From: Candidatus Micrarchaeota archaeon
Lineage (GTDB): Archaea; Micrarchaeota; Micrarchaeia; Anstonellales; Bilamarchaeaceae
Assembly: GCA_037440825.1 (NCBI GenBank)
Contig: JBBITJ010000001.1
Location: 24,686-39,727 of the forward strand
Direction of reading: 5' to 3'
Length of the DNA stretch: 15,042 bases
The notes under the pieces: model-generated
The model's input: only the letters and a program-made list of their open reading frames with translations
Databases searched by the model: none
What the model was told of the DNA's origin: nothing
Position numbers and translations under genes: made by a program
Shown here: positions 4,742-9,088 of the stretch, in pieces
Layout: the number at the start of each line of letters is the position of its first letter
Position numbering within the stretch: the first letter of the stretch is position 1

Positions 4742-5095
4742 TTAAAGGGATTTTTTGCCTTGTTTTTCGAGGATTCTGGAGATCTCTTTTTTGAGCTCAG
4801 GCACATCTTCCTGCACGGTCTTCCACACCGCCTTCAGGTCCACGCCCATGTAATCGTGCACGAGTTTGTCCCGCATGCCGGAGATGTCCTTCCATGGGAC
4901 TTGCGGATGGCCGGATTTGAATTCAGGGGAGAGACGCTTGCTGGCTTCGCCCACAATCTGGATCTGGCGGATCACGGCGTCGTGATAGACGGATGCGGAG
5001 GAGAACTTGTCAAAAACCATACCTTTCGTATATTCCTGAATTCTTGAAAGCGCATCGAAGATATGGCGAAGGTAGACGGAATCGTCCTTTTCCAT
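4742..5095 (-). CDS. hepT: HepT-like HEPN RNase toxin (DUF86)
   Basis: YLRHIFDA, DAVIRQIQIVGEASKRLS, VPWKDISGMRDKLVHDY; contains the HEPN R-x4-H motif followed by the Tyr that is AMPylated in this family. Start overlaps the stop of the upstream MNT gene (TGATG). Confidence 0.93.
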   Translation of the reverse strand: MEKDDSVYLRHIFDALSRIQEYTKGMVFDKFSSASVYHDAVIRQIQIVGEASKRLSPEFKSGHPQVPWKDISGMRDKLVHDYMGVDLKAVWKTVQEDVPELKKEISRILEKQGKKSL

Positions 5096-5391
5096 CAGTA
5101 GAGCACCCTGGCCTCGTCCTTCACGCGCTTGACGATATAGGGGCTGATGGCGCGCTCAGTAAGCAGGTTCGCCTTTATGCCCAGTTGCTCGGAAAGCTCG
5201 CGCTCAATCCTTGCGAATTCCAGCAGGCTCTTGTCCTGCTTGAATTCCACGAGAAGGTCAAGGTCGCTGCCTTTTCTCTGCTCGCCTCTGGCATAGGAGC
5301 CGAAAACGGCTATTTTTTTTGCCCCGTAGGAGCGCAGTATGGACACTGCCTTGCCGAAGAGCGCAGATGCGAGTTCTTTGTTTTTTGACAT
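5095..5391 (-). CDS. mntA: MntA-like minimal nucleotidyltransferase antitoxin
   Basis: VFGSYARGEQRKGSDLDLLVEF matches the GS-x10-DxD motif; 98 aa; directly upstream of and coupled to the HEPN gene. Confidence 0.92.
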   Translation of the reverse strand: MSKNKELASALFGKAVSILRSYGAKKIAVFGSYARGEQRKGSDLDLLVEFKQDKSLLEFARIERELSEQLGIKANLLTERAISPYIVKRVKDEARVLY

Positions 5392-5498: not shown

Positions 5499-8360
5499 TT
5501 ACTTCAGCCTTGCAAGGAACTCGTTTCCTGCAGCCATCGTGTCGTCAGCCGTGAGACCTGCAACCACTATCCTCTTGTCGAATGCTCTTACGACAACAGG
5601 GGTAGCAGCGAAGTCCACGTCCGATCCCGCAATGGTCTCGGCAGTGACCGAGTTGACCTTGTCGCCTCCGACGGTGATGAGCACGGTGCTCGTTACCGCA
5701 GCCGCGTCCTTATCAAGGACAACAAGCTTCGGGTCGAGTCCAGAGTAGGGCACTACCGCCTCAACGCTCGCTGCGTTGTTCGGCATTATCACCGCGCTGA
5801 TCTGGCTTGCCGGAACCGTACAGGTTGCCGATCCGCCAGCAGCCTGGCATGCGCCCACAGTCTCGTCGATGCTCTTGACCTTTATGGTCACGTCGCCGAT
5901 CTCGGTCTGCTCTCCCTCCGCAAGGGTCACCTGCGTGGTCGAAGCACCGGTCTCAGCTGCTTCCGCGGTCGCGAACTCGTACTGCGCCTGGGCAACCTCC
6001 TTCGCAACCTTGAAGGTTACGGAAGTGTCGCCGATGTCCGTGAACTGAGTTCCCCTCGGGCTGATGAACTTGCCCTCCTCGTACGTCCCATCGGAGTACG
6101 AAAGGACCGTCAGCGCGTCCGTGTATTTCACAGAGTCGTCGACGTCAGTTCCCTGAGCCTCGAACTGGGTGCTGCTGGAGTCGTACTCCACGCCCATCTT
6201 GCCGAGTGCGTGCTCGTCCGTGTCTACTGTTCCGATGTCCTCGTAGAGCCAGATAGCCGGATCCGTGCCCGGAGTGAAGGATATTACTCCTCCGTCCGTG
6301 GTCGAGGCCAGCTCTCCAGCATTCGCGTAGTCTACGGTCGTCTCACCCGTGAACGTGTCCGACACGTAGTACTCGTTCGAGGTCGCAGTCTGCTTTATCA
6401 GGTAGACCGCGTTCGCCGCAGCGATATTCGAGTTGGTGAGTTCGTTCACCGTGTCCGCGTTGTCGTCGCTACTGTCCGTGTCCGTGTCTTCGTCAACGTC
6501 CACAAGCCCGTCAATTATGTCGACCTGCTCGTCCGCGCCGTCGTAGAAGATCACGTCGGATTTGTCGTCGCTGCCGTTAATGATTCCGTTTCCGTCCACG
6601 TCAATGGTGGCATCGATTACCTTGTACACCGTTCCGTCCTTGGTAACGATGTATCCGTCGTCGTCACCGTCCGTGGCACCGTCTTCGTCGAGGTCAACTT
6701 CGCCGTCGATTATGTCGAACTGGCCGAGCCCCACGTAGTAAAGGGTGTCGCCTTCGCCTCCGGATCCGCTGAACGCGCTCTCGTCCTGGCTCGTTACCTT
6801 TATGTAGTCGCCGAGCTCAACAGTGTACGCTCCGACGTCCACGCTCTGGCCGTTGCCCTTCGTGTACTTGAGGGTGTCGTAGTCAGAGCTCTTGAGGTTG
6901 AGTCCCTGGTAGGTCAGTTTGTACGCAACCGGGTCCTCGATCACGTTCAAGCTGTCCCCTTCAACCATCGCGACGTTCTCGCCGCTGAAGGTGAATGCGT
7001 CCCTGTAGAGCAGTATGCTCCTAAGGGTATCGGGGTCGTCGACATCCGCGTCTCCCGGCGTTCCGGCATCCTTGTTCTTCCAGATGAGCTCTACGTTCCA
7101 GTTCTCGTTGTCCTCATCGTCAACGGTGTCTCCGTCGTTGAGGGTCAGCTCGTTCTCCAGAAGAGCCATTTCAGCCCACTTGGCGCCCAGGGTGTAACCC
7201 GGAGCAGTCTGGTAGACCTTGATCTTGTAGGTCACTCCGCCTACGATCTTCTCAAGCGTCTCTCCCGGCTCGATCTGGTCCTGCGAAATCACAGAGCCGT
7301 CAGACCTCAGGAAGCTCACGATTGCCGGAGCAGTCTGGTCAGATCCGACCGGAGTCGAAATGTCGTCCAGCCTAATTTTGAGCTGCCCGTCGCTCGTGTC
7401 GAGCGTCTCGCCGATGTTCACGATTCCGTATACGCTCTCTTTCGCGAGCGTCACGGTGCCGCTGCCCGAAGAAGCGTCCGTGGTCGTGGTCAGCGAAGTA
7501 GTGTCCGGAGTCATGTCCGTTATGATCCACGTGCTGCCGAGGAACTGCACCGCAAGCCTGTGCTTTCCGATGTATTCAGCGTCGGTGGACTGGCATGCTG
7601 CGTAGTCCTTGTCGCCGTTCACGTCATCGGTACAAACCGGTATTCCGCTGTGGTCCGCGGTGTCGAACTTGACCTGATATACTATCATATCGGGCTTGAA
7701 TTCGATCTTGCCGTCGGAGTCAGCGTACTCGGTGGTTCCCTTCACCCACACGCTCTGCGTCTCAGTGTAGGAGTCGCCAGTCTGCGAGTCCGTGAGGGTC
7801 GCCGAGTTGAACGGCATGAACTTCTTCGAGTCGACCTTGTAGAGGTCCTCATCGCTCAGGATTGCCGTGCTTCCGAGGTCGAACGGGTTAGCGTCCGCGC
7901 TGGCCTCGGATACGTCCTGGCTGTAGAGGTCCTCCGGGTTTGTGTTCACCCTGTTCTGGAGCCTCTTGTCTATGTAGTCTCCGATCAGGGTCGCGAACTC
8001 GTGCACTCCTGCGTTGGTTGCTCCAGGTACAGTAACCTCAAGGGTCACTTTCTCGTCGGAGACCGCGCAGGTTCCGTTGGATGCTCCAGCAGTGCAGGTT
8101 CCGGTAGCGTCGTTCGGCACAGCTGCGGTGTAGGTGACCTTCTTGTAGGCCGCTCCAGCGATCTTAGCCGCTATCGCTGCCGCAACAGCTCCGTCCGAAG
8201 GCGCAGCTTTGCTTCCGAGCACGACCTTGGCCACAGGCTGTCCGTTGTCGTCTACCAGAGCCGTGTTGTCGAACATCAGTCCGGCAAAGGCTACTGAGCT
8301 GGCCAAGATAGTCGCGCCTGCGACAATCGCGCCAATTTTCTTCAGGTTTACTCCTTTCAT
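5499..8360 (-). CDS. S-layer protein (S_layer_N/S_layer_C type), secreted and highly acidic
   Basis: Signal peptide MKGVNLKKIGAIVAGATILASSVAFA; N-terminal VVLGSKAAPSDGAVAAAIAA; C-terminal LITVGGDKVNSVT...IVVAGLTADDTMAA, which are conserved terminal motifs of Methanococcales/DPANN-type S-layer proteins. D/T/G-rich, strong codon bias, TGAGGTGA RBS at 8365-8372. Confidence 0.9.
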   Translation of the reverse strand: MKGVNLKKIGAIVAGATILASSVAFAGLMFDNTALVDDNGQPVAKVVLGSKAAPSDGAVAAAIAAKIAGAAYKKVTYTAAVPNDATGTCTAGASNGTCAVSDEKVTLEVTVPGATNAGVHEFATLIGDYIDKRLQNRVNTNPEDLYSQDVSEASADANPFDLGSTAILSDEDLYKVDSKKFMPFNSATLTDSQTGDSYTETQSVWVKGTTEYADSDGKIEFKPDMIVYQVKFDTADHSGIPVCTDDVNGDKDYAACQSTDAEYIGKHRLAVQFLGSTWIITDMTPDTTSLTTTTDASSGSGTVTLAKESVYGIVNIGETLDTSDGQLKIRLDDISTPVGSDQTAPAIVSFLRSDGSVISQDQIEPGETLEKIVGGVTYKIKVYQTAPGYTLGAKWAEMALLENELTLNDGDTVDDEDNENWNVELIWKNKDAGTPGDADVDDPDTLRSILLYRDAFTFSGENVAMVEGDSLNVIEDPVAYKLTYQGLNLKSSDYDTLKYTKGNGQSVDVGAYTVELGDYIKVTSQDESAFSGSGGEGDTLYYVGLGQFDIIDGEVDLDEDGATDGDDDGYIVTKDGTVYKVIDATIDVDGNGIINGSDDKSDVIFYDGADEQVDIIDGLVDVDEDTDTDSSDDNADTVNELTNSNIAAANAVYLIKQTATSNEYYVSDTFTGETTVDYANAGELASTTDGGVISFTPGTDPAIWLYEDIGTVDTDEHALGKMGVEYDSSSTQFEAQGTDVDDSVKYTDALTVLSYSDGTYEEGKFISPRGTQFTDIGDTSVTFKVAKEVAQAQYEFATAEAAETGASTTQVTLAEGEQTEIGDVTIKVKSIDETVGACQAAGGSATCTVPASQISAVIMPNNAASVEAVVPYSGLDPKLVVLDKDAAAVTSTVLITVGGDKVNSVTAETIAGSDVDFAATPVVVRAFDKRIVVAGLTADDTMAAGNEFLARLK
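6452..6719 (-). repeat. Three degenerate tandem acidic peptide repeats inside the S-layer protein
   Basis: DIIDGEVDLDEDGATDGDDDG / KVIDATIDVDGNGIINGSDD / DIIDGLVDVDEDTDTDSSDDN, spaced about 31-34 aa apart. Confidence 0.7.
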
Positions 8361-8377
8361 GTTTTCACCTCATTTTT

Positions 8378-8565
8378 TTAGCCGTCCTTGCATCCATTCC
8401 CCGGCAGGAAGCCGAGGAGGTGCTTATGGGGGCCAGCGCGGACGCGGGATGCGCCTGCGCAAAACGATTACCGAACGGCTTGCATGCCCGGATGTCGGGC
8501 ATTTTTCGGCCCCAAGATCCAGAGAGTCCTCTGGGCTCCTCGCAGTAGATGCCCTACTGGGAGGG
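8378..8565 (-). ncRNA. Structured leader (5' UTR) RNA of the S-layer gene, family unassigned
   Basis: GC-rich island in an AT-rich intergenic region, with at least five hairpins and two long-range helices. Several pairs work only as G-U on the minus strand. Confidence 0.65.
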
Positions 8566-8587
8566 TTGAGATACATCAAAAGACAAC

Positions 8588-8635
8588 GTTTAAAAAGATT
8601 TGTCCTTTGTTATAAACTTTTGTTTATAAAAAGTT
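8588..8635 (-). promoter_or_regulatory. Tandem TATA boxes upstream of the S-layer leader
   Basis: Minus strand: aatcTTTTTAAAc (8588-8600), agTTTATAAc (about 8609-8618) and aacTTTTTATAAA (8623-8635). Confidence 0.6.
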
Positions 8636-8645
8636 GAGAGGGGTT

Positions 8646-8680
8646 CGTTATTTGTCCTAAAAAATGTAAGACAAATAACG
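8646..8680. repeat. Perfect 11-bp inverted repeat (operator or terminator hairpin)
   Basis: CGTTATTTGTC (8646-8656) - 13 nt - GACAAATAACG (8670-8680), about 10 nt downstream of the ParB-like gene stop. Confidence 0.8.
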
Positions 8681-8689
8681 TAATTCGCG

Positions 8690-9088
8690 TCAATAGAGCG
8701 ACTTGAGCTTGCCGAGCACGGTTTTCTCTATTCCGAACTTCTGCTTCTTGTCCGGCACCAGCAGGAGCACCTTCCACGGAAGCTTCTTCTTCCACGCGAG
8801 CCTCAATCGCCTGTGGCCGTCGAGCAGTATGAGCTGATTTCCCTTCTTGAGCGCAATCGCGGGCACGCGGTAATCCGGAAGCGAGTCCTCGACCTCCTTC
8901 ATCTTGTCAGCTGCCAACGACTCTATTTCTTCCCCGCCGTACGTGTAAAGCACCTCTCCAATCTGTTTCGGGTTCAGCGTTTTGTCGCTCTTCGAGAAAC
9001 TGATTTTCGGGTAGAGGCGGGAGTAGAAATCTGCTATCCTGTAGAAAAGGCGCAGTTCGTCCTTCATGGATATTAGCCCGTAAGGCAT
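8690..9088 (-). CDS. Stand-alone ParB/Sulfiredoxin N-terminal domain protein
   Basis: RVPAIALKKGNQLILLDGHRRLRLA matches the ParB/Srx P-I-x-V...(I/L)DGHRR nucleotide-binding motif. No HTH or dimerisation domain follows. The start could also be ATG 9067 (MKDEL). Confidence 0.75.
   Translation of the reverse strand: MPYGLISMKDELRLFYRIADFYSRLYPKISFSKSDKTLNPKQIGEVLYTYGGEEIESLAADKMKEVEDSLPDYRVPAIALKKGNQLILLDGHRRLRLAWKKKLPWKVLLLVPDKKQKFGIEKTVLGKLKSLY

Follow-up and report, generated by a model that had tools for sequence, protein, structure and literature searches.

A putative pseudoknotted leader RNA of the main S-layer gene in a large Micrarchaeota-labelled clade

What lies between the promoter and the start codon of the surface-layer (S-layer) protein gene of a Micrarchaeota archaeon, and what could it do for the message? 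The question arises from a stretch of 15,042 nucleotides, hereafter the window, on contig JBBITJ010000001.1 of a Candidatus Micrarchaeota archaeon (assembly GCA_037440825.1), in a genome of 875 kb that is 95.6% complete. The S-layer gene, taken from the list of open reading frames (ORFs), occupies 5499–8360 on the minus strand with its start codon at 8360–8358 and encodes a protein of 953 aa that matches Pfam S_layer_C (E 1.8e-6); a homologue of the N-terminal 200 aa could be found in 85/99 genomes of the family and 134/151 genomes of the class. Upstream of this gene, the original prediction had proposed an undescribed archaeal cis-acting leader RNA and had named seven pairings on the minus strand, all of which were found by script where it had placed them. 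Our results indicate that the leader is almost certainly a real RNA structure maintained by selection, and the broader proposal is supported by a negative Rfam search, by conservation upstream of S-layer genes in related genomes and by covariation. Positions below refer to the minus strand of the window unless another strand is given.

The conserved core of the leader is a predicted compact pseudoknot of two helices, ~80–100 nt in length. In the window, its stem 1 (P3) pairs GGGGCC at 8513–8508 with GGCCCC at 8434–8429 and appears both in the minimum-free-energy (MFE) structure and in the covariation analysis, and its stem 2, the crossing pairing, joins AGCCGUUC at 8480–8473 to GGACGGCU at 8387–8380 over 8 bp, one of them U-G. 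Right after the 5′ strand of stem 2 comes an unpaired loop motif, GGUAAUCGUUUU at 8461..8472, for which column conservation gives the consensus G-N-U-A-A-y-n-n-U-u-u-U and which stays fixed while both helices change sequence. An A-rich spacer, AAAAAAA at 8379–8373, separates the 3′ strand of stem 2 from UGAGGUGA (8372–8365), within which the Shine-Dalgarno sequence GAGGUGA lies at 8365..8371. The same order recurs in the relatives, from the P3 5′ strand through an A-rich loop, the pseudoknot 5′ strand, the G-N-U-A-A…U…U loop, the P3 3′ strand, a short linker and the pseudoknot 3′ strand to a usually A-rich spacer, GAGGUGA and AUG. Most of the 90 family upstream regions follow a compact plan that does without the additional hairpins P4–P6 described below: a TATA-like box and 1–2 hairpins are followed by UUU-GGGCC, an A-rich loop, a 7–9-nt strand with G-N-U-A-A-U…UUUU, GGCCC, 2–17 nt and the complement of the 7–9-nt strand, and then by an A-rich spacer, UGAGGUGA and AUG.

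Covariation carries the case for this core. The two strands of the crossing helix differ wholly between lineages and are always mutually complementary, as in GAAUCGUC/GACGAUUC, UACUGCC/GGCAGUA, GAGCCACC/GGUGGCUC, GCUGUGG/CCACAGC and AUGUCGUC/GACGACAU. When 29 compact leaders were aligned blind to structure with MAFFT, RNAalifold returned the crossing helix as its main prediction, and in the MAFFT alignment A2 P3 and the pseudoknot helix were paired in 97.2% of cells, with a covariation score reached by 0/500 shuffles. Two covariance models extended the comparison, R1 with the crossing helix and R2 with P3 as the paired helix. In alignments fitted to these models themselves, a bias from which the MAFFT results (29 compact leaders, A2 and the genus alignment below) are free, the pseudoknot helix was 98.6% paired over 95 R1 matches from 100 loci of the order (slid controls 29–71%), with all 7/7 pairs changed on both sides (154 cells) and 0/500 shuffles reaching the covariation score, and P3 was 94.9% paired over 98 R2 matches, again with 7/7 pairs changed on both sides (107 cells; 0/500 shuffles), slid controls over both alignments ranging from 22 to 71%. 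Alignment A6 keeps a few reverse-strand or truncated matches, and the window's own leader was aligned by the P3 model in part only (L035 2098–2153).

Within the genus, the leader of the window and those of four other species could be aligned with MAFFT over the full structure of 54 pairs, in which 84.3% of cells were paired, compared with 33–47% when partners were slid, and 16 pairs changed on both sides, a result that 0/500 shuffles equalled. Two of these changes fall in P3, one from G-C to A-U and the other from A-U to G-C. The genus pair counts for P2 and P6 are underestimated because MAFFT aligns both hairpins inconsistently, misplacing them with gaps. The crossing pairing of 8473–8480 with 8380–8387, which the original prediction had singled out for a covariation test, emerged as the best-supported helix of all.

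The two helices follow the order S1, S2, S1′, S2′ that defines an H-type pseudoknot, and each is independently supported. No nucleotide belongs to both P3 and the crossing helix, and the two covary in the same sequences, so the simpler assumption is that they coexist, as we infer from the sequence comparison. Of the two readings originally offered for the crossing pairing, a pseudoknot or an alternative conformation, the former is therefore preferred, and no conserved alternative pairing was found that would favour the latter. In the 50 alignment rows that passed a strict gap filter, the loops measured 5–35 nt (L1), 12–22 nt with a median of 16 (L2) and 2–17 nt (L3), and the median duplex energies were −11.0 kcal/mol for the pseudoknot helix and −12.4 kcal/mol for P3. 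The loop motif is retained at G in 76/92, U in 88/91, A in 90/91, A in 81/93, U in 83/83 and U in 80/93 leaders (A7). The distance from the pseudoknot 3′ end to the start of the Shine-Dalgarno sequence varies between 2 and 21 nt among 90 leaders, the spacer columns of the consensus being A-rich or absent, and GAGGUGA itself is near-invariant across 95 aligned leaders. By eye, the A-rich L1 might also pair with the U-rich L2 and so extend P3, there being no covariation in that region to draw on.

Thermodynamic folding agrees with the nested part of this structure and with its strand. For the minus strand of 8355–8570, RNAfold gave an MFE structure identical to the centroid that recovered all six nested helices at −90.7 kcal/mol (z = −3.39; 1/200 dinucleotide shuffles as good), compared with z = −1.96 and 7/200 shuffles as good for the plus strand. 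Both P3 and the crossing helix, the two conserved helices, contain G-U pairs, which the opposite strand would turn into A-C mismatches, indicating that the folded strand is that of the S-layer gene.

The remaining helices are more changeable. P1 (8564–8554 / 8548–8538) and P2 (8534–8529 / 8524–8519), both part of the MFE structure, are hairpins that vary and lie close to the predicted 5′ end. Of the P1 cells in the genus alignment, 90% were paired, with 2 pairs changed on both sides, and a first hairpin equivalent to P1 is present in most relatives, which also have a hairpin at the place of P2. The lineage-specific hairpins P4, P5 and P6 are inserts in the three loops of the pseudoknot. P4, in L1 (8502–8496 / 8490–8484), is present in G000, G004 and G005 and is lacking from their congeners G007 and G001 as well as from most of the family. 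P5, in L2 (8460–8451 / 8445–8436), was 95.6% paired with 3 pairs changed on both sides in the genus alignment, and P5-like inserts were seen in a few other lineages. P6, in L3 (8418–8411 / 8405–8398), was 67.5% paired with 4 pairs changed on both sides in the same MAFFT alignment, and neither P5 nor P6 occurs in the compact forms. The multibranch architecture emphasized by the original prediction is hence not the conserved feature of the leader, P4, P5 and P6 being inserts of the window's genus and a few other lineages. The leader also contains an ORF of 45 codons (8502 to 8365) that starts in P4 and ends at a UGA within the Shine-Dalgarno sequence. A leader peptide or upstream ORF was considered on this account and rejected, as the ORF is not conserved because its start in P4 is missing in 2/5 genus leaders and in the compact forms.

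How far does this leader extend beyond the window, and does it follow one gene? Its own genome gave a single significant match, the S-layer leader itself (E 9.8e-5), the next best standing at 0.054. In the family, 64/90 S-layer-type upstream regions matched the R1 model at E ≤ 0.003, and across the order a match at E ≤ 0.01 was found in 89/151 genomes belonging to 9/12 families, mostly one match in each. Among 33 out-of-family matches that were fetched, 29 directly precede an S-layer-type start (MKG.N.KK.AA…); of the others, 2 are cut at the Shine-Dalgarno sequence and 2 are weak and do not represent the motif. A phylum-wide sample searched at E ≤ 0.001 yielded matches in families f15 (4/6) and f19 (2/2) and none in f13 (0/46) or f14 (0/25), and inspection of 20 further upstream regions by eye recognized the motif in f29 and f31 and short leaders without it in f13 (5/5) and f14 (4/4). 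Extra S-layer-like paralogues in the family lack the motif. The element is thus an old one, shared by the family, the order and part of the remaining class, and as judged from these genomes, it is strongly supported that the leader family is specific to the main S-layer gene of a large Micrarchaeota-labelled clade.

Other leaders were seen in front of S-layer genes during this survey. Those of f13 and f14 (within L210–L227) are ~35 nt long with one small hairpin, and f16, f17, f18, f20 and f21 (also within L210–L227) have other structured leaders with unrelated GC-rich hairpins. Such differences among the families of the class indicate that the S-layer leader has been remodelled repeatedly. 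In the window's genus, G006 (L041) carries a short AU-rich leader that keeps the UUAAUCGUU loop together with a different complementary pair (UUCCCU/AGGGAA).

Catalogue searches returned no family for the leader. At the gathering threshold, the whole window gave only the 5S rRNA gene at 647–761 on the plus strand (RF00001, 81.4 bits) in Rfam 15; the region 8300–8700 gave two chance-level matches far under the thresholds at E ≤ 10; and 20 compact or out-of-family leaders gave, at E ≤ 1, only an upstream tRNA in L096 and one chance match. The tRNA gene, at 97–180 on the plus strand of L096, lies directly upstream of the S-layer promoter in that one family genome. A full-text literature search, which did not extend to supplements, found no description of the leader element, and a paper on archaeal GGDEF proteins used riboswitches just as an assay. 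The S-layer pseudoknot leader is apparently undescribed as an RNA family.

Its place in the transcription unit can be predicted from the promoter. A TATA-like box, TTTTTAAA, was read at 8589..8596 and conforms to a family pattern: a pattern search found a TATA-like octamer of the TTTATAAA, TTTTTAAA or TTTAAAAA type in 77/89 family upstream regions, at a constant spacing from the first hairpin. With this conserved box as the sole basis, we infer a transcription start near 8566–8570, ~26–30 nt past the first T of the box and 2–6 nt ahead of P1, in a conserved (C)UCUCAA context. The interval from 8361 to ~8570 is accordingly predicted to be the 5′ untranslated leader of the S-layer mRNA.

What, then, might the leader do? 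The reading we favour, to which we would give about an even chance, is that it acts constitutively in cis on the stability and translation of the S-layer mRNA and would thereby sustain very high S-layer output. The 5′-proximal hairpins and the compact GC-rich pseudoknot would shield the message from decay starting at the 5′ end, the pseudoknot would close the structured part just ahead of the ribosome-binding site, and the invariant loop may serve as a tertiary-contact or factor-contact site required for the fold. Consistent with this reading, stable stem-loops stand near the 5′ end of a long leader, as in the slpA type discussed below, when measured from the predicted start: the region from there to P3 holds 1–4 hairpins in 95/95 leaders (median z −3.46; z < −2 in 79%), and the first paired base lies a median of 5 nt from the predicted start in the same 95 leaders. 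The genome encodes three beta-CASP proteins, two of them short, a family that includes archaeal 5′-to-3′ exoribonucleases, and one LSM-family (Sm-like) protein of 76 aa, so that protection against 5′ decay and Sm-type binding to the U-rich loop are both feasible. No conserved alternative pairing that would hide the Shine-Dalgarno sequence was seen, which also counts in favour of constitutive action. In a cultured Micrarchaeon, according to a preprint, the S-layer gene ranked third by expression in the transcriptome and no protein was more abundant than its product (10.1101/2021.04.28.441871); the words UTR, leader and promoter are absent from that preprint.

Several observations weigh against constitutive action. 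The mean probability of being unpaired from the Shine-Dalgarno sequence to AUG was 0.517, compared with 0.510 when the upstream sequence was shuffled (n = 90, Wilcoxon p = 0.27; pseudoknots lie outside the model), and as accessibility equals that of the shuffled controls we make no claim that the leader keeps the ribosome site open; an 'insulator' role, first entertained as positive evidence, was dropped for this reason. Six unpaired positions are 80–100% conserved while both helices change completely, and plain stabilizing hairpins need no conserved loop sequence. The motif is limited to one gene per genome and is not common to highly expressed genes, which, together with the conserved unpaired loop, suggests a specific partner. 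Finally, the element is dispensable: G003 (L040), a species of the window's genus with a 95% complete genome, instead carries an unstructured A/G-rich leader with repeated GGAG words, and in f13 and f14 the leaders are short and lack the motif.

An operator that binds a protein or a ligand would also suit the invariant loop and the limitation to a single gene, and we tentatively regard it as possible, on the unlikely side, that the pseudoknot and its loop constitute a sensor, be it a riboswitch of a new class or an operator dedicated to a protein. The small number of conserved unpaired positions would fit an aptamer, a protein site or a tertiary contact. If a sensor were present, these host-dependent archaea with small genomes would match S-layer synthesis to a signal such as an envelope precursor, a metabolite from the host or S-layer protein left unassembled, the leader would join the very few RNAs known to control genes in DPANN archaea, and a loop binding a ligand or protein would offer a direct route into the control of envelope synthesis in these organisms. 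A translational operator, in which an RNA-binding protein such as a gene-specific regulator, surplus S-layer protein or an Sm-like protein recognizes the G-N-U-A-A…U-rich loop on the pseudoknot scaffold, seems somewhat doubtful. Binding would block or help 30S binding and so tune S-layer synthesis, an effect that could arise because 2–21 nt separate the site from the Shine-Dalgarno sequence. In family f6 a gap of just 2–3 nt is left between the pseudoknot and GAGGUGA; the spacing as a whole is variable, which speaks against this mode of action. The conservation of the unpaired positions across lineages with changed helices, the narrow length range of L2, the presence of mostly one copy per genome with the inspected matches preceding S-layer-type genes, and the encoded 76-aa LSM-family protein beside a U-rich loop would all suit a protein operator, and pseudoknot operators next to ribosome-binding sites occur in E. 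coli rpsO/S15 and phage T4 gene 32. At the locus itself, however, nothing stands out as a candidate partner: the upstream ORF of 132 aa is restricted to the genus and has no family match.

A riboswitch, in which the pseudoknot and invariant loop would bind a metabolite or ion as an aptamer (an envelope precursor, say, or a compound from the host) and ligand-dependent pseudoknot formation would alter translation initiation, we consider improbable. An expression platform could not be identified: neither helix includes the Shine-Dalgarno sequence, which never falls in a conserved helix, and neither a conserved alternative pairing nor Shine-Dalgarno sequestration could be detected, so that the switch-like character of the helix next to the ribosome-binding site, as the original prediction described it, is not supported. 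Two candidate switch pairings were rejected as not conserved, one joining the pseudoknot 5′ strand to sequence that overlaps the P3 3′ strand, in genus g32 and some others, and one joining the same strand to GGUGA of the Shine-Dalgarno sequence, in g32; such pairings are confined to some genera, and by eye neither the window's genus nor family f6 shows them. The motif controls a single structural gene and was not seen ahead of any transport or biosynthesis gene, conservation outside the helices is limited to few positions, and Rfam offers no match. Its wide conservation and strong covariation do fit a riboswitch, and a compact pseudoknot with conserved nucleotides in junction and loop, placed directly upstream of a Shine-Dalgarno sequence, is a common riboswitch layout (SAM-II, preQ1-II, fluoride). 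An association with S-layer-related genes is also described for the bacterial SLH motif, itself an orphan riboswitch candidate (PMC6429828). That the element is instead a separate small RNA gene, or a protein-binding site at the DNA level, lying upstream of the S-layer gene by chance, is very improbable. The strongly conserved promoter region, with further TATA-like and palindromic elements, does indicate that DNA-level constraint exists nearby; against this explanation, the compensatory changes keep pairing, including G-U pairs valid on the gene strand only, the orientation of the motif is always that of the gene, and a distance of 2–21 nt from the pseudoknot 3′ strand to the Shine-Dalgarno sequence is too short to accommodate a terminator or another promoter.

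The surroundings of the S-layer gene hold further features. Upstream of the proximal TATA-like box lie two more, TTTATAAA at 8630–8623 and GTTTATAA at 8617–8610, the former within the palindrome AACUUUU-UAUAAAC-AAAAGUU; this pair is conserved in most family upstream regions and might serve as an additional promoter or bind a regulator. Farther upstream, an inverted repeat, TTATTTGTC … GACAAATAA at 8648–8678, encloses a T-run just past the stop of the upstream ORF (8690) and is probably the terminator of the upstream gene, and genus relatives have an inverted repeat of different sequence at the equivalent place. This upstream ORF of 132 aa (8690–9088), directly upstream of the S-layer promoter, is conserved at 54–58% identity in 5 loci of the genus, matches nothing in Pfam or NCBIfam and, among 29 loci searched, was absent beside the S-layer gene beyond those five; it was rejected as a linked partner gene on the grounds of being genus-only (5/29 loci) and without a family match. 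No conserved neighbouring gene pointing to a partner was found in the same 29 S-layer loci. Directly downstream of the S-layer gene are genes for a HepT-like ribonuclease and an MNT-type nucleotidyltransferase at 4742–5095 and 5095–5391, overlapping by 1 base, the usual layout of a HepT/MNT toxin-antitoxin pair.

To our knowledge, archaea have yielded few structured cis-acting mRNA elements and DPANN lineages hardly any, and the covariation of this one over about a hundred genomes, on an S-layer gene, is the reason why it matters. The leader is a sound candidate for a new RNA family entry, a possible marker by which the main S-layer gene and its promoter could be annotated in these genomes, and a candidate part for strong expression in archaeal hosts. 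Its compact form of ~80–100 nt suits probing, structure determination and reporter assays.

The leader can be compared with several known systems. A structured 5′ untranslated region gives bacterial slpA mRNAs their long half-life, and the slpA leader is reported to stabilize the transcript and expose the ribosome-binding site, truncation lowering expression (PMC10221546). The S-layer leader resembles the Lactobacillus slpA type in being a long leader on the mRNA of the most abundant envelope protein, with 5′ stem-loops and a strong ribosome-binding site. It differs in its archaeal host, in having no sequence or Rfam relationship to slpA and in forming a pseudoknot with an invariant loop, whereas slpA has a plain hairpin; the effect on half-life is one described for slpA. 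The SLH motif is described as an orphan riboswitch candidate upstream of S-layer-homology-domain genes (Stav et al. 2019, PMC6429828), and on that description it shares with our leader the character of a conserved structured RNA that has no assigned ligand or function and is tied to surface-layer genes. In contrast, SLH is bacterial (Synergistaceae, Firmicutes), a distinction drawn from its description; the negative Rfam search bears on it only if Rfam 15 includes the SLH motif. The exoribonuclease-resistant RNA of flaviviruses (xrRNA) has a compact pseudoknotted fold that resists exoribonucleases, and by analogy the S-layer pseudoknot would be placed where 5′-to-3′ decay could halt before the functional part of the RNA; the likeness is one of analogy only, with no sequence likeness and no demonstrated likeness of fold. 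The E. coli rpsO/S15 operator, the T4 gene 32 leader, SAM-II and preQ1-II are H-type pseudoknots next to ribosome-binding sites, and the S-layer leader is like them in its predicted crossing helices S1, S2, S1′ and S2′ directly 5′ of the Shine-Dalgarno sequence. Unlike them, it would have a long middle loop (12–22 nt) carrying a conserved motif, and it would keep the Shine-Dalgarno sequence and the start codon outside both helices.

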